From the NCBI GenBank assembly GCA_965658655.1, contig CBFHTA010000001.1:296722-360721 (forward strand): a stretch of DNA of 64,000 nt, written 5' to 3'. The notes beneath the pieces were generated by a model, which saw only the letters and a list, made by a program, of their open reading frames with translations, was not told where the DNA came from and ran no database searches. Shown here piece after piece: positions 19,174-37,653 of the stretch. The number at the start of each line of letters is the position of its first letter. Position 1 is the first letter of the stretch. This stretch comes from Candidatus Babelota bacterium. Its GTDB lineage: Bacteria > Babelota > Babeliae > Babelales > CAIQNR01. Made by a program: the position numbers and the translations under genes.

Positions 19174-21372
19174 ATGAAAAAAATATTTATTTTTATATTA
19201 ATGTTGAGTTTAGGCACAGTTCAAGGTGCATGGAATAATGTTCGTCATAAACACGGCGAGATGATGAATATGCTACCTGAGAATAAACGTCTTTATGCTC
19301 CTTTAGTGGGAGTTTCTTTACTGGAAGGTTCTTTGGGCAAAAAAATATATAACGAAAAGAGTAAGCGCGGTGAATTTGCTAAAAATGTATTACGATTTTT
19401 GGATGATCGATTTATTAAGCACAGTGTAGAGAGTAATCCATTTACTACTATTGAAGTCAAAGAAATTGGGATGCTTGTTAACGCTATTATAGATAATAAT
19501 CTAGAAGAGTTCATAAATAGCGATGCTGTTATAGAATGGCATAAAAGACATTTTGAAAAGACAAAAAGATTTCATAAGATAGCTAAATTTAAAAATGATT
19601 TAAAAAAGAAACTAGCTCCTCTTGAGGATATGCATTCTCAAGACATTGCATATATTCTTGCTATGCTTTTAGTTGTTGTTAGTAATTCACCTGATGATTA
19701 TAAAGTTTATTTAGATTTGCTACGAAAACATCATGAATTTGATCAGAGTGATGATCTAGGTTCAGAACAAGATTTTTTTGAATCTGCAGTTACAAAAATT
19801 TTAGATAACAAGGTTCATGATTTTAGCAAGCTTGTCCCTTCTGAGCAGATGTACGGTGATTGTAAAGGTAAGAAACTGCCGATATGTGCAGAACAAGCTT
19901 TGTGGGGTTTTGTTAACCTTGTTTTGTATAATAAAGAAAAAAAATATTTAGACTTATCTGTATTATCAAATGACATTCAACCATTACCTGCTTTTAAAGA
20001 ATTTATAGAAAACCATTCTATAATTGAGGGTATTTCCTATTATGAAGACAATAAGCAAGAATGGATAAATCTTGTTTCGGGGGTTCCTGGTATTGATTAC
20101 AGAGATGATGGTTGTGAATTACTAACTAATACAACCAACAGTATCAAAGTGTTGAATTATCTTTTTAATATTAATGCAAAAACTTTAAATGAGTGTGGAG
20201 AGATTCTGTCTTCTACGGATAAAGAGATTATTATTAATAAGTTAGAAGAAGACTATGGAGAATTTATTATAAAAATAGATTATTTTCCTATAAGAATAAT
20301 ATGGAAATTTAGTGAGGGCCATGTGAGCTTTTTTCTACCAAAAGAAAAAAGAACGTTTGATGATGCTTTTGTAAAAAAAATTATTGAGTATGAATCTGAT
20401 AATCCATCAAAGCCATTAGCACATCTTATTGCAGATGAATTATTAATATTACTATTTTCATCAAAAAATGATTTTGATAATATGCAAGTGAAAAATAGAA
20501 AAGAATTTATTGAAAAAATTATTAATTTACCATCTTTTGATATGCATAATCTTAGATATCAAGGAAAATCATTACTTTCATATGCTATTGCTGAAAAAAA
20601 TTATATGGCATTTCTTGCATTAGTACAAAGTGGAGCAGATCTTAATGAAGCGATCGCTAACTTATCACCTTCAGATGATATACCTTTCATTGATTTTCTT
20701 ATTAAGAATGGAGCTGATATTAATAAATTACCAACATCTTTTTATGAAGGATTAAAGTCTAAAAAATCAGCACAATTTTTATTGAAAAATGGTGCTGATG
20801 TAACAACTCATGTGGAAAGTTTAATTAAAGGTAAGAAGATTTTTCAAGCTCGTTTTTTATATAGAAATATGTGGGATGAAAATAAAAAAATTGATGGAAG
20901 ATTTTTAAAAAATACATTGGATTTTTATAACTATATGTATGATGTTAATCCTATTGACTCTGATGATATATTGACGGCATTGTTAATGCAAGAATACGAT
21001 CAATTGAGAGTATTATTTAAAAAAGGAGCAGAATTAAAAAAAATAGAAAAAGAAGAAGACGTTGATTTTATTATTGAGGAATTATTAGAAAAAAACTTTG
21101 ATAGTAACGTCATTTTAGACCAAGTTGTTTGTGAAAAATTTAATTCAAAAAATAATTATACATACTATCTTGATATGCTGATTAAGGCTGGAATTAGCGT
21201 TAATGATATTTTGGATAAAGCAATTGAGAAAAATAATGATATGTCTTCTGATGTTATAAAGTATTGCGTTGAAAAAGGAGCCACTATAGATAAAGAATTG
21301 CGCTCCAAAATAGAAGGTAATAATAGAGAACTCAGGGAAGTTAAAGGTGCGGATGAGGATCAAGTCATTTAG
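19174..21372 (+). CDS. Exported protein with C-terminal degenerate ankyrin repeats
   Basis: Signal peptide; LVQSGADLN, LIKNGADIN, LLKNGADVT and CVEKGATID repeats; visibly more AT-rich than its neighbours. Confidence 0.75.
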   Translation: MKKIFIFILMLSLGTVQGAWNNVRHKHGEMMNMLPENKRLYAPLVGVSLLEGSLGKKIYNEKSKRGEFAKNVLRFLDDRFIKHSVESNPFTTIEVKEIGMLVNAIIDNNLEEFINSDAVIEWHKRHFEKTKRFHKIAKFKNDLKKKLAPLEDMHSQDIAYILAMLLVVVSNSPDDYKVYLDLLRKHHEFDQSDDLGSEQDFFESAVTKILDNKVHDFSKLVPSEQMYGDCKGKKLPICAEQALWGFVNLVLYNKEKKYLDLSVLSNDIQPLPAFKEFIENHSIIEGISYYEDNKQEWINLVSGVPGIDYRDDGCELLTNTTNSIKVLNYLFNINAKTLNECGEILSSTDKEIIINKLEEDYGEFIIKIDYFPIRIIWKFSEGHVSFFLPKEKRTFDDAFVKKIIEYESDNPSKPLAHLIADELLILLFSSKNDFDNMQVKNRKEFIEKIINLPSFDMHNLRYQGKSLLSYAIAEKNYMAFLALVQSGADLNEAIANLSPSDDIPFIDFLIKNGADINKLPTSFYEGLKSKKSAQFLLKNGADVTTHVESLIKGKKIFQARFLYRNMWDENKKIDGRFLKNTLDFYNYMYDVNPIDSDDILTALLMQEYDQLRVLFKKGAELKKIEKEEDVDFIIEELLEKNFDSNVILDQVVCEKFNSKNNYTYYLDMLIKAGISVNDILDKAIEKNNDMSSDVIKYCVEKGATIDKELRSKIEGNNRELREVKGADEDQVI

Positions 21373-21800
21373 AATGATAAAGGCACCGATATATTTCAAC
21401 TTTTTCAGTTTTATATTGTATTGCGATAAACTTTTCCATCATATAATCTCATAATTTTAGTGTTTCTTGACGAGTTGATTTAAGAACTCTTTTGAGTGAG
21501 GATTCAATGCGATCTAGGAACGTTTCATAATCAGGATCCCATACTGTCTGGCCATCTGCTGATACATTTGTAACTCAAAAACAATTATTATGTTTAGTAA
21601 AAAAAATTACCATAGATCCTTTTGAGAAACTATATATAATAGTTTTAAGCTTGGGTATTTTAAATATTTTTATAATCAAATTTAGCCTGTCTCCAAATTG
21701 CCTCTGTGAGCTTATTTTGGCTTGTTTGCTTTACAAAATAATCTATTTAGGTACCATATTTAAAGCTAGGTTTACCTCTTTATACATACGGAGTTCATAT

Positions 21801-23771
21801 ATGATCGATCTATATCAGTCGTTTTTTGCAGTCTCAGGAATTGGGGCGCTTATTGTCGGTGCATTGTTTAGCAAGATTAATCAGGAGAAAGTAAGTAGTG
21901 CAAAGGCTGAAAAAATAGCCGCTGCAATTTCTGAAGGGGCTATGACCTTTCTACAGGAAGAATATAAAATTATTATGGTTGTAGTTGCTCTTGTTGGCGG
22001 TGCAATTGGTTACTCAGTAGGGTCAATTCCAGCACTATTGTTTGCTGCTGGATCTTTCCTTTCTATGATTACAGGTTTTATTGGTATGCGTGCTGCAACT
22101 TCTGCAAACGTTCGTACCACTATGGCTGCAAAACGTAGCGGTGAACATGCTGCGTTCATGATTTCATTCTTTGGTGGTGGAGTTATGGGATTTGCTGTTG
22201 CAACATTTGGTTTACTTGGAATCACTGTTGTAATGAATCAATATGGTACACATTCAGATATAGCACTTTATCTTACTTGCTTTAGTTTGGGTGCAAGTTT
22301 AGTTGCATTCTTTGCACGTATTGGTGGTGGTATTTTCACTAAATCTGCAGACGTTGGAGCAGATTTGGTTGGTAAAGTAGAGGCAGGAATTCCTGAAGAT
22401 GATCCTCGTAATCCTGCGGTTATTGCAGATAACGTGGGTGATTGTGTTGGTGATACTGCTGGTATGGGTGCTGACATTTATGAATCATACGTTGGTGCAA
22501 TGGTATCTTCTATTATTTTAGCTTTAACATTACATCCAGAAAATCCACTTTACATAACACTTCCAATTGTTCTTGCTGCTATTGGGTTGGCAAGTTCTGC
22601 AGTTGGGTTGTTCTCTAACTTACTTATGAAAGCAAAGCCAGATGCTATGCTTCGTAATGCAACATATGTAGCTATTGTAGCATATTTAGCTGGAGCATAT
22701 TGGTATTTGGGTAAATATAACTTACCAATACATTTATTCTATGCAATGGTAATTGGTTGCGTATCAGGAATGGTTATTGGATTAATTACTGAATATTACA
22801 CAGGTGGTAACCCTGTTAAAAAATTAGCAGAAAGTTGTGAATCTGGAGCAGCAACAAACATTATTTATGGTTTGTCTCTCGGTATGGAATCTGTTGCGTT
22901 TCCAGTAATTCTTCTTGCTTTCTCTGTTCTTGCAGCATTTGTTTACGGTGGTGGTGATCTTTACGGAGTATCACTCGCTGCAGTTTCTATGTTGGCAACT
23001 GTTGGTATTACTATGACAGTTGATGCTTACGGGCCGATTGCAGATAATGCTGGTGGTATTGCAGAAATGGCTGGTTTTGGAAAACCAGTTCGTGATATTA
23101 CAGATAAACTCGATGCGCTTGGAAATACAACAGCAGCAATCGGAAAAGGTTTTGCAATTGGTTCTGCATTGATGACTGCATTAGCAATGTTTGCAGCATA
23201 TGCAAAAGAAGCTAGTATTGAATCATTAAATGTTCTTGATCCATGGGTACTTACAGGACTATTTATCGGTGGTGTAATGCCATTTGTTATTTCTGCATTA
23301 ACTATGCGTTCTGTTGGTAAGGCTGCATGGGAAATGGTACAAGAGGTTCGTCGACAGTTCAAAACAATTAAAGGTTTAATGCAAGGCAAGGCTGAACCAG
23401 ATTACAAGCGTTGTATTGCGATTAGTACTCGTTCTGCATTGCGTGAAATGGTACTTCCTGGTGTTTTAACCGTATGTTTACCTGTTCTTGTTAAATTTAC
23501 ATTGGGAACATTAGCTTTAGGTGGCATGCTTGTTGGTGCTACATTGAGTGGTGTAACACTTGCTCTTATGATGGCAAACGGTGGTGGTGCATGGGATAAC
23601 GCTAAAAAGTACATCGAAGCGGGTGCACTTGGCGGTAAAGGTTCTGATGCACACAAAGCAGCGGTTGTTGGTGACACTGTTGGTGATCCATTTAAAGATA
23701 CTTCTGGTCCCGCACTTAACATTTTGATTAAGTTGATGGCTGTTGTTTCTTTGTTGCTTGTTTCTATGTAA
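21801..23771 (+). CDS. hppA: Membrane-bound ion-translocating pyrophosphatase (K+-dependent signature)
   Basis: GGGIFTKSADVGADLVGKVE, DNVGDCVGD, GNTTAAIGKG and GDTVGDPFKDTSGP; GGAG RBS before ATG 21801. Confidence 0.97.
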   Translation: MIDLYQSFFAVSGIGALIVGALFSKINQEKVSSAKAEKIAAAISEGAMTFLQEEYKIIMVVVALVGGAIGYSVGSIPALLFAAGSFLSMITGFIGMRAATSANVRTTMAAKRSGEHAAFMISFFGGGVMGFAVATFGLLGITVVMNQYGTHSDIALYLTCFSLGASLVAFFARIGGGIFTKSADVGADLVGKVEAGIPEDDPRNPAVIADNVGDCVGDTAGMGADIYESYVGAMVSSIILALTLHPENPLYITLPIVLAAIGLASSAVGLFSNLLMKAKPDAMLRNATYVAIVAYLAGAYWYLGKYNLPIHLFYAMVIGCVSGMVIGLITEYYTGGNPVKKLAESCESGAATNIIYGLSLGMESVAFPVILLAFSVLAAFVYGGGDLYGVSLAAVSMLATVGITMTVDAYGPIADNAGGIAEMAGFGKPVRDITDKLDALGNTTAAIGKGFAIGSALMTALAMFAAYAKEASIESLNVLDPWVLTGLFIGGVMPFVISALTMRSVGKAAWEMVQEVRRQFKTIKGLMQGKAEPDYKRCIAISTRSALREMVLPGVLTVCLPVLVKFTLGTLALGGMLVGATLSGVTLALMMANGGGAWDNAKKYIEAGALGGKGSDAHKAAVVGDTVGDPFKDTSGPALNILIKLMAVVSLLLVSM

Positions 23772-25747: not shown

Positions 25748-26205
25748 AATGTTCTCCCCTAATTTTTATATATCTATGCTGTTAAGTATAACAAAATGAC
25801 AAGATTGAATGTCAACAATAACTGAATTTATTTTCTTTTTTACTTAAACTTTAATTTCATAATATTGAAACTTTAATTCTGAAAAAATGCATAAAAAGAG
25901 AGTGATAGGCTTAGTTTAGCTACATTTCTATATGCAATCTTAAGGAAAGAAAAAAAAGTTCAAATTTTAGAATATGGCTTAAAAAAAAAAGATGGAAATT
26001 TATTTGATTCAAAGGGTTAAAATCGGTACAGTTATCTTTCACTGCTACTATGAAATGTTTTCTCTCTGTAACATTATTATTATTTATGGAATTCGGCAGA
26101 AGAACAGAGCGAAAAATCTTTGTAGAGGGTTCTCTCGACGTTTTTAGGGGTAGGGTTATTTGTACCAATGGAATTTAGTATCCGCTTTTAATGAAAGGGG
26201 CACGT

Positions 26206-28764
26206 ATGCACGAGCAAGGAGAGGTTGTACCACAGGTACCACTTCACGCACAGAAAAGTGAGCAGGAAAGAGAAGTAAAGCACTCTTCTATTGATAAGGC
26301 GGCTCTTTTTACCATTAATAAAAAAGATGGTGAAGGCGTTCCTTTCAATCGAGAAAAAGTATATTTGACTCTTAAGCGGGCTTGCAAAGGCTTAGAGGAC
26401 GATGTTGTTGTTGACTTGATAATGCAAGAGGTCACTAAAAATTTATATGATCAAGCATCAACTAAAGAAGTAGAAGACGCCCTTATATTGGCTGCTATTG
26501 CTTTTATTGAAAAGGATCCAGCTTATAGTAAAGTTGGTTCTCGTCTATTGCTCCAAAAGCTTTCTAAGGAAGTTTTTGGAAATTCTATTACGCAAGAGAC
26601 TTATGGACAGCATTATTATCGTTCTTTTATAGAAGGTATTCAATTAGGGGTAGAAAACGATATTTTTGATAAAGGTTTACTTGAGTTTGATCTTGAGTTG
26701 CTTGCTTCAAAGCTTGTTTTAGAGAGAGACGACATAATTGAATATTTGGGTCTATTTAACTTGTATGAACGTTATTTCTCCAAAGTTAAAGGTCGTCGTA
26801 TCGAGCTGCCTCAAATGTTCTGGATGCGTACAGCTATGGGTCTTGCTATGCAAGAAAAAGAAAATCGCAATGAACTGGCCATGGAGTTCTACGACATTAT
26901 GTCGGAACTTTATTATGTTCCATCGACACCCACTTTATTGCATTCTGGTGGTACTCATCCCCAATTGAGTTCTTGCTTTTTAACCACAATTGGCGATGAT
27001 TTGGATCATATTTTTAAATGTTATGGTGATAACGCTCAAATGGCACGTTGGTCTGGTGGTGTTGCTAATGATTGGACTCCGCTGCGTGGTACCGGTGCCT
27101 ATATTAAGAGTATTAAGTCTCCTGGGCAAGGTGTAGTACCATTTTTAAAAGTTGCTAATGATGTGAATGCTGCTATTAACCGTAGTGGTCGTCGTAGAGG
27201 AGCAACAGTTGCTTATCTTGAGACTTGGCATTATGACATTGAAGATTTTTTAGATTTACGTAGAAATACAGGTGATGAACGTCGTCGTACGCATGACATG
27301 AACACTGCAAATTGGATTCCAGATTTGTTCATGAAGCGTGTTATGCAAGATAAGCAGTGGACACTTTTCTCTCCAGACGAAGTACCAGATTTGCATGATT
27401 TGTATGGTCAAGCATTTGAAAAGCGTTATGAAGAGTACGAAATGCTGGCAGATCAAGGAAAAATAGAACTGACTAAAAAAGTAAAAGCAGTTGAGTTATG
27501 GCGTAAAATGCTTACTCGATTGTTTGAAACTGGTCATCCATGGTTAACTTTTAAAGATCCATGTAATGTTCGATCTCCTCAAGATCATGCGGGTGTAGTT
27601 CATAGTTCAAACTTGTGTACAGAAATTACTTTGAATACTTCAGCAGAAGAAACAGCGGTATGTAATTTAGGTTCTGTGAACTTAGGTAAACATGTTATTA
27701 ATGGTGAATTTGATCAGCAACTGCTTGGTAAAACTATTAAAACTGCTATTCGTATGCTCGACAATGTGATTGATATTAATTTCTATCCAACAAAAGAGGG
27801 TAGAACTTCTAATATGCGACATCGTCCTATTGGATTAGGTATGATGGGCTTTCAAGATGCATTGTTTAAAATGAATATTAGTTTTTCATCTCAAGAAGCT
27901 CTTGATTTTGCAGATAAAACAACAGAGATGTTCTCTTACTACGCTATTCTATCTTCTTCTCAATTAGCTAAAGAACGTGGAACTTACAGCTCTTACAAGG
28001 GTTCAAAGTGGGACAGGAATATCTTCCCTGTTGATACTATGGATCTTCTTGAGAAAGAGCGTGGACTTAAAATTGAAGTGTCTCGCACTGAGCACTTAGA
28101 TTGGGCTCCTGTTCGTGAGCATGTTAAGGCGCATGGTATGAGAAACTCAAATACCATGGCAATTGCACCAACCGCGACGATCTCTAACATTTCTGGTTGT
28201 TTCCCATGTATTGAGCCGATTTACAAGAATTTGTATGTAAAGGCAAATATGGGTGGTGAGTTTACTGTTACCAATAAATACTTAGTTCAAGATTTGAAAA
28301 AAGAAAATCTATGGAATCAAGAAATGCTTGATTTAATTAAGTATTATGATGGTTCAGTTGAAAAGATAGATTCAATTCCAGAGTATTTACGTAACAAGTA
28401 TGCAGAGGCATTTGAACTTGATCCACTATGGATGGTTGAGATAGCAGCTGCGCGTGGAAAATGGTTAGATCAAAGTCAATCATACAATGTGTTTGTTCGT
28501 GGTGTATCTGGTAAAATTCTTGACTCTGTGTACAAAAAAGCGTGGGAAAAAGGCTTAAAATGTACCTATTATCTACGTTCACTTGGTGCGAGTCAAATTG
28601 AAAAATCTACACTCGACGCTAAAAAGTTTGGATATACACAAAAGCGTGATTACAAAAAAGTTGAAGAAAGTAACACTTCTTCAGAAGAAGTAAAAACAGT
28701 ACCTGCATCTCAAGTACAAAGCGCTTGTAGTCTTATAGAACCAGATTGTGAAGCATGTCAGTAA
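26206..28764 (+). CDS. nrdA: Ribonucleoside-diphosphate reductase alpha subunit with ATP-cone
   Basis: ATP-cone (INKKDG..PFNREK), QLSSCF, SSNLCTEI, APTATIS, YYLR and C-terminal CEACQ. Confidence 0.97.
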   Translation: MHEQGEVVPQVPLHAQKSEQEREVKHSSIDKAALFTINKKDGEGVPFNREKVYLTLKRACKGLEDDVVVDLIMQEVTKNLYDQASTKEVEDALILAAIAFIEKDPAYSKVGSRLLLQKLSKEVFGNSITQETYGQHYYRSFIEGIQLGVENDIFDKGLLEFDLELLASKLVLERDDIIEYLGLFNLYERYFSKVKGRRIELPQMFWMRTAMGLAMQEKENRNELAMEFYDIMSELYYVPSTPTLLHSGGTHPQLSSCFLTTIGDDLDHIFKCYGDNAQMARWSGGVANDWTPLRGTGAYIKSIKSPGQGVVPFLKVANDVNAAINRSGRRRGATVAYLETWHYDIEDFLDLRRNTGDERRRTHDMNTANWIPDLFMKRVMQDKQWTLFSPDEVPDLHDLYGQAFEKRYEEYEMLADQGKIELTKKVKAVELWRKMLTRLFETGHPWLTFKDPCNVRSPQDHAGVVHSSNLCTEITLNTSAEETAVCNLGSVNLGKHVINGEFDQQLLGKTIKTAIRMLDNVIDINFYPTKEGRTSNMRHRPIGLGMMGFQDALFKMNISFSSQEALDFADKTTEMFSYYAILSSSQLAKERGTYSSYKGSKWDRNIFPVDTMDLLEKERGLKIEVSRTEHLDWAPVREHVKAHGMRNSNTMAIAPTATISNISGCFPCIEPIYKNLYVKANMGGEFTVTNKYLVQDLKKENLWNQEMLDLIKYYDGSVEKIDSIPEYLRNKYAEAFELDPLWMVEIAAARGKWLDQSQSYNVFVRGVSGKILDSVYKKAWEKGLKCTYYLRSLGASQIEKSTLDAKKFGYTQKRDYKKVEESNTSSEEVKTVPASQVQSACSLIEPDCEACQ

Positions 28765-28787
28765 TTTAAAAAAATAAGAGGTCTACT

Positions 28788-29807
28788 ATGGAAAATAGTA
28801 AAGATATTAATCAATCTGGGATCATTTGTAATACTACAACTGATCCTAATAAAATTCTTCCTATGCGTTATTTATGGGCTCGTCAACATTATCAAGATGG
28901 TGTAGCTAATAACTGGACTCCTGAAGAAGTTTCAATGCAAAAAGATGTTGAGCAATGGAAAGATCCAAAGTGCTTAACAGAAGATGAACGCCGTATGATG
29001 TTATGGAATCTTGGTTTTTTTTCTACAGCAGAATCTTTAACTGCAAATAACTTAGTACTTGCAGTATATAGACATATAACCAATCCAGAATGTCGTCAGT
29101 ATTTGCTACGTCAGGCATATGAAGAAGCGGTTCATACAGATACCTTTATTTATGTGTGTGATTCGTTAGCTCTTGATCCTGATGAAATTTACAACATGTA
29201 TGAGACTATTCCTTCCATTGAAGAAAAAGATAATTTTGTTATTAATTTAACTAAATCTATCTTTGATCCTAACTTTGAAATTACAGATCTCAAGTCTATG
29301 CAAATGTTTGTGCATGACCTTGTGGGGTACTATGTAATTATGGAAGGTATCTTCTTTTATGCAGGGTTTGCCATGATGTTGGCTCTTAAGCGTCAAAATA
29401 AGATGATTGGTATTGGTGAGCAGTTTGAATATATTATGCGAGACGAAAGCATTCATTTAGCATTTGGTTGTGACTTAATCAATACTATTAAAAAAGAAAA
29501 TCCAGCTTTGTGGACCCAAGAATTTCAAGATAATATTGTTGAGTTAATTAAAAAAGCTGTTGAGCTTGAAGCGCAATATGCTATTGATGCTTGTCCGCGT
29601 GGATTACTTGGTATCAGTAATGATCAATTTGTGAATTACGTAAAACATATTGCTGATCGTCGTTTAGAACGTATTGGTTTGCCAAAAGTATATAACGAAG
29701 AAAATCCATTCCCATGGATGTCTCAAGCAACAGATTTAAGCAAAGAGAAAAACTTCTTTGAATCTCGTGTAACAGAATACAGAACAGGCGGTTCATTAGA
29801 GTGGTAA
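28788..29807 (+). CDS. nrdB: Ribonucleotide reductase beta subunit, class Ic (Mn/Fe) type
   Basis: STAES, EEAVHTDTF, MEGIFFY, RDESIH and NFFESRVTEY motifs. Confidence 0.95.
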   Translation: MENSKDINQSGIICNTTTDPNKILPMRYLWARQHYQDGVANNWTPEEVSMQKDVEQWKDPKCLTEDERRMMLWNLGFFSTAESLTANNLVLAVYRHITNPECRQYLLRQAYEEAVHTDTFIYVCDSLALDPDEIYNMYETIPSIEEKDNFVINLTKSIFDPNFEITDLKSMQMFVHDLVGYYVIMEGIFFYAGFAMMLALKRQNKMIGIGEQFEYIMRDESIHLAFGCDLINTIKKENPALWTQEFQDNIVELIKKAVELEAQYAIDACPRGLLGISNDQFVNYVKHIADRRLERIGLPKVYNEENPFPWMSQATDLSKEKNFFESRVTEYRTGGSLEW

Positions 29808-29862: not shown

Positions 29863-29899
29863 AAGAGCAGAAGCATGTAATGTTTCTGCTCTTTATTTT
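29863..29899. terminator. Probable bidirectional terminator between convergent genes
   Basis: AAGAGCAGAAGCAT pairs with ATGTTTCTGCTCTT. Confidence 0.7.
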
Positions 29900-29915: not shown

Positions 29916-30794
29916 CTACCGGTACCAATTGTTATTTTGTTTATACGGGATTCCCTTGCCTTCTAAGAAATCTGTTCTGTTTTGCTCGCGTACAATTCTA
30001 TCGGTTTCTCTTTTTTTTTCTTCTCTTGCTTTTTTTTCTTTTACTTCTTTTTCTGCTCTTTCTCTTTCTTCTTTATTTCGTCTTTTTTGTGCGTTACTTT
30101 CTCCTTGTTTTCCTAGAGAGGGAAAGTCTTTATTAAATTGAGGATCTACAGTTTTGCTCTTATCATCAAAATATCGCTCCAGTTGAATAGTGCTTTGTTT
30201 AGGATGTGGTAGTGCCGGTTTAGAGGGACGCCCAGAATCACAGGAGAATTGAGACATTGCTAACATAGAAACACTTTCTCCTGAGCATGGAGTATGGTGA
30301 TTTTGACTTTGTCTTTCTTCACGTTTTGTTCTTTGACTATGTTGTTTTTTGTCAAAACATTTTTGTTTACTATTGGGATGGACAAGAGGATGGAATTTCT
30401 TTGTTTTTTGTGCTGCAGGTGGTAGATGTGTTTGAGGTTTTTCTGTTTCTTCGAGAGTATTGCGGCTGCTTATTTCGGGGATATGAGCTTTTTTCTTTTT
30501 TTTTTCTTCTCTCTTTTCTTCAGCTATTTTCGCTGCTAATTTGTGTAATATGATGGGGTCTTCGGCTTCCTCATCACTATCATCTAAAATTAAAGCTCCA
30601 AATGGATTGTTACTGAAACGATCTTCGTTTGTGAGAAGGGGTGTTTTTGGAAAAAATTTTTTTTCTAATGTTGCTTTATCTGAGGGTGTCATATAAGTTT
30701 GCCCATTGATTCTGTTACCACCACGACCTTTTCTATGTCTTCCACATTCAAGAGAAAAGGGCAGTAATAAAATAAAAAGAAAATATTTATTCAT
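29916..30794 (-). CDS. Exported low-complexity Lys/Glu-rich protein with eukaryote-like linear motifs
   Basis: Signal peptide, then RGG, NPFGAL..DD..EDP, KKKKK and DFPSLG. Confidence 0.7.
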   Translation of the reverse strand: MNKYFLFILLLPFSLECGRHRKGRGGNRINGQTYMTPSDKATLEKKFFPKTPLLTNEDRFSNNPFGALILDDSDEEAEDPIILHKLAAKIAEEKREEKKKKKAHIPEISSRNTLEETEKPQTHLPPAAQKTKKFHPLVHPNSKQKCFDKKQHSQRTKREERQSQNHHTPCSGESVSMLAMSQFSCDSGRPSKPALPHPKQSTIQLERYFDDKSKTVDPQFNKDFPSLGKQGESNAQKRRNKEERERAEKEVKEKKAREEKKRETDRIVREQNRTDFLEGKGIPYKQNNNWYR

Positions 30795-30900
30795 AGATTA
30801 AATTCCATTGTAAAAAAAGCGCATATATTTTAATTCATTACGAGTCATTGTAGGATACATGCGTTTTTCTGTAAAATTGTATTGGTGTTTTATGCGATTT

Positions 30901-36153: not shown

Positions 36154-37653
36154 ATGAAAAAACTTATTCTTGTATTATTGTCTGTGTCGTTATTAATAGG
36201 CTCATTCTTATTTGTTTCTAAAGCAAATTCCTTTAAATCTTCGGTTCCTTTAGCGAGCTCATCAATAGCTCCTTCAATGAATGATTTTAGTCCTTCTAAA
36301 AAGATCGCTCAGTGTTCTTCTTCTGGTCAAAAAGAACGTCATGGTGCATTTGTAGTTGTCAGTGCGGGAACTACTGATGATGGTAAGGGTAAGATTTGTG
36401 ATTACTTGGCAAAAGATGCTTTCTTTTCTGTTCGATCTCAGGGAACACTTCCTGAAGGTCACAGAGTGCAAAAGAATGGAAAAACATATGTTCTCCATCA
36501 TATTCCGGTAGCGATTCTTACACCGCATGTAAAATGTTATCTGGCACCGGGAATGGTCATTGACCCCAAATTACTTTTTCAAGAAATAGATGATTTACAA
36601 AAGCAAGGTATAAATCTTGATGATCGTTTGAAAATTTCTACGGCAGCTCATTTATTAATGCCATATCATGTGCAGATCGATAATCTTGGTAGAAAAACAA
36701 AACGACGCAAGGGTGCTGCAGGAGTTCGTCGTGGTGCAGGAGCCGCTTCATCGGATAAACGCTTAGGTTTGGGAATTCGTATTGCAGATTTGTGGGGAGA
36801 AGATTTCCCTATTGATCTCAAAGAAAAATTGAAAATTATTAATGAAACTCTTACCAAGGTATATGGAGCAAAGCCTGTGGCGTATAAGCCTTTACTAAAA
36901 GAGCTTATGGAGTACAAGGAAAAATTTGAGCCTTATGTTCGGGACCGTGTTGAATTAAAACTAAACCAGCTTTTAAGAAAACGTAAAAAAGGAATCTTTG
37001 AAGGTGCCCATGGTACATTTCTTGATATTACGCATGGTATTTATCCATATACTGCTCCTACCGATACCACTGCTTCTGGAATAGTTGCAAATGCTGGTGT
37101 AGGACCGTCTAAGATCGATCATACTTTGGGTGTAGTGAAAGCCTATGCTACATGTGAAGGCGATGGTCCGTTTACAACAGAAATTAAAGATCCAGCAATT
37201 ACTCAGCATTTTAGAGATAAAAATAAAGCACTTTCTGATCCAGATAGATATCGTTATGGTTGGCTTGATGCTGTTATGGTTCGTCAAGCTATGTTTATCA
37301 ATGGAATGGACTCTATTGTAATTAGTCGACTAGATGATTTAGATGGACTAGATAAAATAAAAGTTTGTATCGATTACGATTATAAAGAGAATCCTGAAGA
37401 TACTGAAGTACAGCATTTCGACTATCCACCGCCTAGAATTAAGCAGTTACGGGAGGTTACACCGCATTATGTTGAGTTTGATGGGTGGAAAGAATCAACC
37501 AAAAATGCAAAGCACATTTCGCAGTTACCTTTGAATGCACGTGTGTTTGTTAAACGTCTAGAAGCTTTATTTGCGACACCTGTAAGCATTGTTTCTGTTG
37601 GCCCTCGTCAAGATCAAACAATTTTAGTGAATGATTTCTTTAGATACATTTAA
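36154..37653 (+). CDS. Divergent adenylosuccinate-synthetase-fold protein with N-terminal signal peptide
   Basis: DDGKGKICD, GH, EGAHG, GVVKAY, GWLD and SVGP give the PurA fold, but the IMP- and Asp-binding motifs are altered and there is a ~63-aa N-extension. Confidence 0.85.
   Translation: MKKLILVLLSVSLLIGSFLFVSKANSFKSSVPLASSSIAPSMNDFSPSKKIAQCSSSGQKERHGAFVVVSAGTTDDGKGKICDYLAKDAFFSVRSQGTLPEGHRVQKNGKTYVLHHIPVAILTPHVKCYLAPGMVIDPKLLFQEIDDLQKQGINLDDRLKISTAAHLLMPYHVQIDNLGRKTKRRKGAAGVRRGAGAASSDKRLGLGIRIADLWGEDFPIDLKEKLKIINETLTKVYGAKPVAYKPLLKELMEYKEKFEPYVRDRVELKLNQLLRKRKKGIFEGAHGTFLDITHGIYPYTAPTDTTASGIVANAGVGPSKIDHTLGVVKAYATCEGDGPFTTEIKDPAITQHFRDKNKALSDPDRYRYGWLDAVMVRQAMFINGMDSIVISRLDDLDGLDKIKVCIDYDYKENPEDTEVQHFDYPPPRIKQLREVTPHYVEFDGWKESTKNAKHISQLPLNARVFVKRLEALFATPVSIVSVGPRQDQTILVNDFFRYI

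Follow-up and report, generated by a model that had tools for sequence, protein, structure and literature searches.

Proteins of the Stm1/SERBP1/HABP4/plant RGG family are among the closest described systems to the gene considered here. SERBP1 is reported to hold the ribosome by three handles: an N-terminus near H79 of 28S ribosomal RNA on the 60S subunit, an internal region in the messenger RNA (mRNA) channel, and a C-terminal FPxL motif that sits in a hydrophobic pocket of RACK1. According to the published account, a SERBP1 mutant without the channel region retained ribosome binding. The FPxL motif is described as common to SERBP1, ZAK, LARP4, and RNF10. In ZAK, it is internal, not C-terminal (FPPLIK), and F417, L420, and K422 are reported to touch RACK1. 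Putative FPxL motifs have been reported in 4.5–6% of ribosome-bound human proteins. Here, we compare these systems with P0001, an open reading frame (ORF) of 292 codons in a 64,000-nucleotide window of contig CBFHTA010000001.1 (positions 296,722 to 360,721, forward strand; assembly GCA_965658655.1). The initial annotation, made from the sequence without database searches, had read the product as a secreted, disordered protein with four Stm1/SERBP1-like motifs in family order, and the gene as a mimic or a captured gene acting on host translation.

P0001 and the members of the family are alike in being disordered and basic, and P0001 carries an NPF-x-x-L...DD motif followed, as in the family, by an FPxL motif. 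The differences are more numerous. P0001 has a putative signal peptide, is a bacterial gene with native codon use, and lacks both the channel block and the MTLEEY block. It has a single RGG where the family has RG-rich repeats, and its two motifs are internal whereas they are terminal in every full-length member inspected. We put the chances at about even that P0001 is an ordinary, fast-evolving exported orphan whose motif likeness to Stm1/SERBP1 is coincidental. Two of the four ordered motifs occur at chance level, and the other two would be a rare pair of the kind expected when very many ORFs are read.

By profile comparison, P0001 is neither a homologue nor a member of the Stm1/SERBP1/RGG family. 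The profile similarity that the initial annotation anticipated was not seen: neither Stm1_N (PF09598; cut-off of 23 bits) nor HABP4_PAI-RBP1 (PF04774; cut-off of 21.8 bits) matched P0001 at E ≤ 10, whether whole or as four fragments. The two profiles also found nothing in the six-frame translation of the source genome, and they gave chance matches in 7 of 14 and 3 of 14 control genomes, respectively. Full-sequence scores of P0001 against three family profiles, with filters off, were −1.0, 1.4, and −5.4 bits, and hhalign of P0001 against the family returned a probability of 3.7% over 12 columns, located at the N-terminal motif.

The family profile itself was built from true members. These were sought by scanning metagenomes for the back-translated N-terminal motif, which yielded 80 loci, 14 of them with Stm1-like N-termini; most of the 80 encode bacterial NPFDFF proteins because the search pattern also matched Phe codons. 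Six full-length member ORFs pass both Pfam cut-offs (36.8–83.4 bits for Stm1_N and 26.8–103.2 bits for HABP4_PAI-RBP1), and their alignment, A1, is the basis of the profile. A1 retrieved 1857 proteins; the 120 listed all have both Pfam domains, and those named by organism are plants. A second family search, started from locus L085 and aimed at protist members, likewise returned mostly plants. In the PDB, the A1 profile found fungal HABP4 (1.5e-14), human SERBP1 (5e-14), Vig2 (6e-6), and yeast Stm1 (4e-5), and it is therefore valid across kingdoms; it is biased toward the NPFDLL form because its members were obtained by way of the N-terminal motif. The members show NPFDLLxDDxEDP, YERRSGTGRG, GNWG, EMTLEEYEK, and a C-terminal FP[ST]LGGK or FPAL, so the family motifs that the initial annotation had cited are real. 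Searched with A1, the 261 genomes of the order gave six matches at E ≤ 10. All six fell in the K/E-rich middle of the model, and there was no match to the N-terminal motif; the source genome itself went undetected.

The part of the family that is most conserved is the part that P0001 lacks. The core in A1 comprises invariant R, SGT, and WG columns, and the corresponding channel block, R-x-SG-TG...N-W-G, is absent from P0001 (block p of 0.57 and 0.11). WG is absent, as the initial annotation had noted, and the single Trp is residue 290. An MTL-E-E-Y block is likewise missing, the best-scoring site being out of order. The conserved family Trp is reported to bind a uS3 pocket in the mRNA channel. 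Because the Trp-containing channel block is missing, P0001 would be unable to clamp a ribosome in the manner of Stm1, and docking by two handles would differ from the clamp that had been suggested.

Of the strings quoted in the initial annotation, all are present (RGG, NPFGALILDDSDEEAEDP, FDKKQHS, TIQLERYF, and DFPSLGK, at residues 24–229), but they differ in how far they exceed chance. We took block scores from family profile positions, unfitted to P0001, and scored the best ordered chain of ungapped matches; the blocks are the most conserved family stretches and coincide with the invariant columns of A1. FDKKQHS is outside the top three P0001 sites for its block. With 4.8 bits, TIQLERYF is outscored by RNTLEETEK at residue 111 (9.7 bits), which does not fit the family order. 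Together, the three middle blocks (RSGTG, NWG, and MTLEEY) reach 15.1 bits where shuffles average 13.3, and 5297 of 20000 shuffles score as high. The likenesses of FDKKQHS and TIQLERYF are noise. The claim of four ordered motifs is thereby reduced by the composition-shuffled control to NPF...DD and DFPSLGK, which beat the shuffles jointly.

The strength of the N-terminal match depends on the profile. Family profiles place residues 61–106 of P0001 on model positions 3–44. With the plant-heavy profile, the match scores 11.9 bits, is reached by 0 of 5000 and 1 of 5000 shuffles, and ranks first among the 897 ORFs of the genome. With the more diverse profile, it scores 5.4 bits and ranks fourth, and 22 of 5000 global shuffles and 84 of 5000 local ones score as high. 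Scored without gaps, the 10-residue block gives p = 0.0085 against shuffles; the motif begins ∼45 residues past the predicted cleavage site, and the alignment needs gaps. For the C-terminal (FPxL) block, the shuffle p is 0.0012. Its FPSL (residues 224–227) is in a low-confidence stretch of the structural model, with a predicted local distance difference test (pLDDT) score of ∼60 for residues 211–230, just before a helix. A further 63 residues follow the FPSL site, whereas inspected members end 0–3 residues after theirs. The proteome shows no enrichment for FP[SA]L (8 ORFs vs. 7.4 occurrences expected).

The shuffle-based values have to be read against natural disordered proteins. Among 43 disordered-like ORFs, 8 have a two-motif shuffle p ≤ 0.05 where ∼2 are expected; shuffle p-values thus run too low for this class. 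By our estimate, the chance of such a motif pair is of the order of 1e-4 per ORF, which is rare in one genome but not across millions of ORFs read with many families in mind.

P0001 is an orphan in every collection searched. Among 5.8 billion proteins, a word-indexed search scored 1194 candidates and returned P0001 itself only. The same was true when HMMER was run in full over 1.84 billion representatives and when the six-frame translations of 41 related genomes were searched at E ≤ 10. The ESM Atlas gave no usable match to the whole protein or to residues 55–232, and Pfam gave weak unrelated matches only, to the whole protein and four fragments. In the PDB, sequence searches with the whole protein and two fragments returned a kinesin-like coil and a designed protein and none of Stm1, SERBP1, HABP4, or Vig2.

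P0001 is specific to its species and looks like a genuine native gene in its codon use, its promoter-like site, and the terminator hairpin (table 1). The codon log-likelihood in frame is 0.223 per codon, relative to a genome mean of 0.199, and the other five frames score −0.25 to −1.31. The G+C content at third codon positions (GC3) is 0.218 in P0001 and 0.241 in nrdB. In the region around the promoter-like site, such sites overall are no commoner than in shuffles.

The description of the product as secreted and disordered is supported in part. P0001 is predicted to have a Sec-type signal-like start, with Cys17 or Gly18 as possible −1 residues for cleavage. The call is by our own hydrophobicity rule, not by a dedicated predictor, and the rule also flags 273 of the 897 ORFs of the genome; signal peptides are reported in 44% of coding sequences in a cultured member of the Dependentiae, Chromulinavorax destructans. 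For these two reasons, a signal peptide is a weak marker in this genome. A lipoprotein reading was rejected, as there is no lipobox. The mature protein has a net charge of +17, is 76% polar, and is predicted to be largely disordered with two K/E/R-rich helices. Disorder is read from one single-sequence AlphaFold2 model, with a mean pLDDT of 59.7 and 121 residues below 50.

The source genome (G000; 928,713 bases in 4 contigs, 95% complete) tentatively belongs to Dependentiae/TM6: its nrdB is closest to that of a "candidate division TM6" genome (78% identity), and this placement probably holds but depends on one gene. The organism is probably a reduced intracellular bacterium and an obligate parasite of protists. 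Its DNA occurs, with identical sequence and no variants, in two marine plankton metagenome runs; none of the public sequencing runs listed as carrying it was an RNA run. Secretion genes in the genome comprise two secretins and one GspE-like ATPase. The genome resembles what is reported of C. destructans in being small and reduced and in having many signal-peptide ORFs, an ankyrin protein, and ORFan exports. In C. destructans, the exported set is described as ORFan-rich and vesicles as budding during infection. The description consulted mentions no ribosome-directed motif among the exported ORFans, and P0001 has no relative among them.

P0001 lies between conserved genes in what is, by sequence comparison, a fast-turnover, hypervariable island of unrelated small, putatively exported ORFs. 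P0001 and three small ORFs form a set of four same-strand genes over 2.85 kb between nrdB, which is present in 15 of 16 family genomes and is 82–92% identical in relatives, and a conserved gene for a 272-amino-acid protein. This four-gene island is absent from the relatives' loci compared. In 10 relatives' loci, the interval between nrdB and the 272-amino-acid gene measures 0.7–4.0 kb; most of the ORFs in it are unrelated, and many begin like a signal peptide. In genome G001, of the same genus, nrdB is 92% identical, but the convergent ORF next to it is a different, unrelated one; the comparison is limited to ∼390 nucleotides past nrdB, where the contig stops. Among island ORFs, the single clear homologous pair is that of G004 and G009. 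Two K/E-rich pieces of one G010 ORF match one another, and the K/E-rich tail of P0001, weakly and through low complexity, and no credible relative of P0001 was found among the relatives' island ORFs.

If the motif likeness is coincidental, Sec would carry P0001 to the periplasm, which it could leave via either of the two secretins or inside outer-membrane vesicles. In the surroundings of the cell, it would be a fast-evolving polycation that binds polyanions, for example RNA, DNA, or acidic membranes, through its basic helices.

Several results count against coincidence. The N-terminal and FPxL pair scores 32.3 bits against 13.9 ± 3.2 in shuffles (z = 5.4), and of 40000 shuffles only 1 attains this score, a local one (0 of 20000 global, 1 of 20000 local). 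Nor is it reached in natural sequence, neither in 1756 windows of the source genome nor in 2125 windows taken from 719 ORFs at other loci (0 of 3881 windows). Among the 43 disordered-like ORFs, P0001 is at the top and the next has a z of 3.5. True members (n = 207) score 29.1–58.5 bits with a median of 54.5, a range that includes P0001. KDFPSLG, at 14.8 bits, is the top C-terminal-block site among the 897 ORFs. The two surviving motifs map to two distinct SERBP1 handles known from published experiments. The nrdB-adjacent ORFs of relatives, treated below, also have a weak excess of matches to family blocks. The polyanion binding proposed above is read from composition.

The explanation to which these results point is that P0001 mimics two of the three docking handles of SERBP1, with motifs that arose convergently. 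We consider this unlikely, though well short of negligible. FPSLGK would fill the FPxL pocket of RACK1 on the 40S subunit and the NPF-acidic motif would take the 60S site near H79, with ∼145 disordered residues linking the two and no plug for the channel. Resembling the first and third handles without the second, the protein would therefore dock and compete with host factors and leave the channel unplugged. Host ribosomes would lose Stm1/SERBP1 and other FPxL clients to it but would not be silenced, and the protein could change ribosome dormancy, protection, or RACK1-based signaling in the host. The gene adjacent to nrdB in relatives may be a fast-evolving platform for such motifs.

Beyond the rarity of the ordered pair, a two-handle mimic is favored by the N-terminal motif landing on the correct end of the family profile, where P0001 has the best-ranked domain of the 897 ORFs with the plant-weighted profile, and by the FPxL site being the best in the genome. 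The retention of ribosome binding by the SERBP1 channel mutant and the internal position of the RACK1 motif in ZAK, both as reported, are compatible with it, as are a probable obligate parasite of protists with many exported ORFans and the family-like blocks in the nrdB-adjacent ORFs of G012 and G010. Like the FPxL carriers ZAK-alpha, SERBP1 (at its C-terminus), LARP4, and RNF10, P0001 has F-P-x-L, and it has a K at +5 as in the FPPLIK of ZAK; this ZAK-like spacing of F, L, and K was spotted after the fact. The carriers so far reported are all eukaryotic and cytosolic, whereas P0001 is bacterial and its likeness to a RACK1 ligand comes from sequence alone. Bacterial effectors that imitate eukaryotic short linear motifs form a general class, and P0001 is like them in being disordered, exported, from an intracellular bacterium, and equipped with host-like short motifs; its entry into the host cytosol is putative. 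A non-exhaustive literature search, which included a review on RACK1 in infection, found among the papers listed no described bacterial mimic or effector that copies the Stm1/SERBP1 handles, and searches on the P0001 motif strings themselves found nothing useful.

The evidence that lowers the probability of a mimic is of several kinds. There is no homologue in which conservation of the motifs could show, and the 261 genomes of the order have no Stm1-like N-terminal match. The N-terminal match weakens to 5.4 bits and rank 4 of 897 with the more diverse profile, and on the two-motif score P0001 exceeds 5 of the 207 true members and trails 202. Both motifs are internal in P0001, unlike in the full-length members inspected. 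The FP[SA]L string is unenriched in the proteome, and FPxL is reported to be frequent among ribosome-bound human proteins. A per-ORF chance of ∼1e-4 is not rare over millions of ORFs, and the excess in relatives is marginal.

That excess was measured in a post hoc design, in which the relatives' nrdB-adjacent ORFs were scored with the same blocks, each against its own shuffles, and P0001 was excluded. In 70 tests of nrdB-adjacent ORFs, 4 had p ≤ 0.01 and 9 had p ≤ 0.05. The corresponding numbers were 2 and 10 in 225 tests of other ORFs of the same loci, and 3 and 7 in 160 tests of 32 disordered-like ORFs of the source genome. By our own arithmetic, p is ∼0.04 relative to the disordered control. 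The excess is confined to two ORFs, in G012 and G010. The G012 ORF has FHFPSLE and EEFPALT (both FP[SA]L; 12.1 and 11.5 bits) and an RSG-like EHHRKVGTG, and it has no sequence homology to P0001. The G010 ORF has NQFEVLDEDAAWLVDPDDE near its C-terminus, with the NQFEVLDEDA site at p = 0.0002, and AMTLQHYWR near its start (p = 0.006), and these two blocks stand in the wrong order relative to the family.

A decayed captured gene is very improbable. Under this explanation, a host Stm1/SERBP1/RGG gene would have acquired a signal peptide, been lengthened at either end, and diverged so far that only its terminal motifs are left. The family order of the two motifs, the single RGG, and the resemblance of FPSLGK to the plant and algal ending FP[ST]LGGK are what would be expected of such a remnant. 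Yet no profile signal extends beyond 12–45 residues, the most conserved core (the invariant R, SGT, and WG) is missing, and codon use and GC3 are fully native. No intermediate was found in 41 or 261 related genomes, and a different gene occupies the position in the same genus. Of the two options that the initial annotation had offered, capture is thus the one that fails, for want of a profile match and of the Trp channel block, whereas mimicry keeps a low probability on account of the jointly rare pair.

We give as little credence to a role in endocytic traffic, in which the NPF would bind EH-domain proteins of the host and so change phagosome traffic, with an incidental FPSL. NPF binds EH domains, and the P0001 stretch that carries it is modeled with low confidence and presumably disordered, in a protein that is predicted to be exported. 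However, NPF alone occurs in 4.1% of shuffles, and EH ligands favor acidic residues right after NPF, whereas the acidic run of P0001 starts at +6. Clathrin-box and dileucine readings of the ALILDD in this motif were also set aside, as neither fits the consensus. Least credible is that P0001 is no functional gene but an ORF that arose by chance, or is decaying, in a variable spacer, which its orphan status, low complexity, and fast-turnover island might suggest, as it has an open frame of 292 codons in DNA of ∼35% GC, an in-frame codon score above the genome mean and the other five frames, a promoter-like site, and a terminator.

If its motifs work, P0001 would be without precedent within our limited literature searches, as a protein from a bacterium that imitates how a eukaryotic ribosome-dormancy factor docks. 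It would then also be a natural separation-of-function tool for occupancy of the RACK1 pocket and the 60S handle site, having the handles without the channel plug. If the likeness is a coincidence, P0001 is a calibration case, in which four motifs shrank to two under family-derived scores and shuffles.

Table 1. Coordinates (positions in the 64,000-nucleotide window) of P0001, its motifs, and neighboring features.
Feature	Position	Strand	Remarks
P0001 ORF, 292 amino acids plus stop	29916..30794	minus	Orphan; predicted exported, basic, mostly disordered product
Signal-peptide-like N-terminus, residues 1–17	30744..30794	minus	K3, then hydrophobic run of 12 residues
RGG, residues 24–26	30717..30725	minus	One copy
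NPFGALILDDSDEEAEDP, residues 63–80	30555..30608	minus	Look-alike of family N-terminal handle (NPFGALILDD...)
Predicted K/E-rich helix, residues 80–102	30489..30557	minus	AlphaFold2 pLDDT 85–87 over residues 81–100
FDKKQHS, residues 147–153	30336..30356	minus	Chance-level likeness to YERRSG block
TIQLERYF, residues 202–209	30168..30191	minus	Chance-level likeness to MTLEEY block
DFPSLGK, residues 223–229	30108..30128	minus	FPxLxK; look-alike of RACK1-interacting motif
Predicted long K/E/R-rich helix, residues 234–277	29964..30095	minus	AlphaFold2 pLDDT 84–98
Promoter-like site TTTACA-17-TACAAT	30847..30875	minus	∼50 nucleotides upstream of P0001 ATG; 10/12 matches
14-bp hairpin	29863..29893		Between convergent nrdB and P0001 stop codons; terminator hairpin
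nrdA and nrdB	26191..29807	plus	Conserved left border of island
Small island ORF, 104 amino acids	30901..31215	minus	Hydrophobic N-terminus, K-rich tail
Small island ORF, 166 amino acids	31707..32207	minus	Hydrophobic N-terminus, K-rich tail
Small island ORF, 137 amino acids	32290..32703	minus	Hydrophobic N-terminus, K-rich tail
Conserved gene, 272 amino acids	32654..33472	minus	Right border of island; homologues 0.7–4.0 kb from nrdB in 11 relatives' loci

The three other ORFs of the island have in-frame codon scores of 0.03–0.13 and no homologues among the ORFs compared from the relatives' islands. Pfam found nothing in them except a weak, unrelated match of the 137-amino-acid ORF to DUF6080 (E = 0.12). 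One of the 104- and 137-amino-acid orphan ORFs is very K-rich. The 166-amino-acid ORF has an internal repeat, GTSPFDFGLTLSPL, in two copies, and a C-terminal Lys run, KHRKRKKKKKKS, that looks like a nuclear localization signal.

Elsewhere in the window, a 732-amino-acid protein with a weak ankyrin-repeat match (19174–21372, plus strand) is followed by a membrane H+-pyrophosphatase (21651–23771, plus strand; 819 bits), and both types are typical of host-dependent reduced genomes. An adenylosuccinate synthetase gene (36154–37653, plus strand) has a Pfam match starting at residue 67, after an unexplained N-terminal extension of ∼65 amino acids.

Further look-alikes were seen in relatives and in the source genome. 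The nrdB-adjacent ORF of G012 (L029:6363–6908, plus strand) encodes 181 amino acids with a signal peptide, is syntenic with P0001, and is convergent on nrdB. That of G010 (L027:633–1851, minus strand) is K/E-rich, adjoins nrdB, and is interrupted; the contig end may also truncate it. In another family of the order, a 736-amino-acid ORF (G080:C12:12691–13068, minus strand; locus L231) matches the K/E-rich middle of the Stm1/RGG profile (E = 6.3e-5, 21.5 bits, positions 218–344), probably as a low-complexity coiled coil. In the source genome, a signal-peptide ORF of 211 amino acids (C2:70157–70792, plus strand) has NPFSTSSDDD, which fits the Stm1 N-terminal block with a shuffle p of 0.0017. It also has a long Gly/Ser/Tyr/Met repeat, SGGMNSYGNSGGMTSGG..., that is reminiscent of eukaryotic low-complexity RNA-binding domains. 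Another ORF of the source genome (C1:28585–29391, minus strand), of 268 amino acids, is extremely Lys-rich, has a signal peptide, and near its C-terminus carries RYERKSRSGKKR, which fits the YERRSGTG channel block with a shuffle p of 0.0003.

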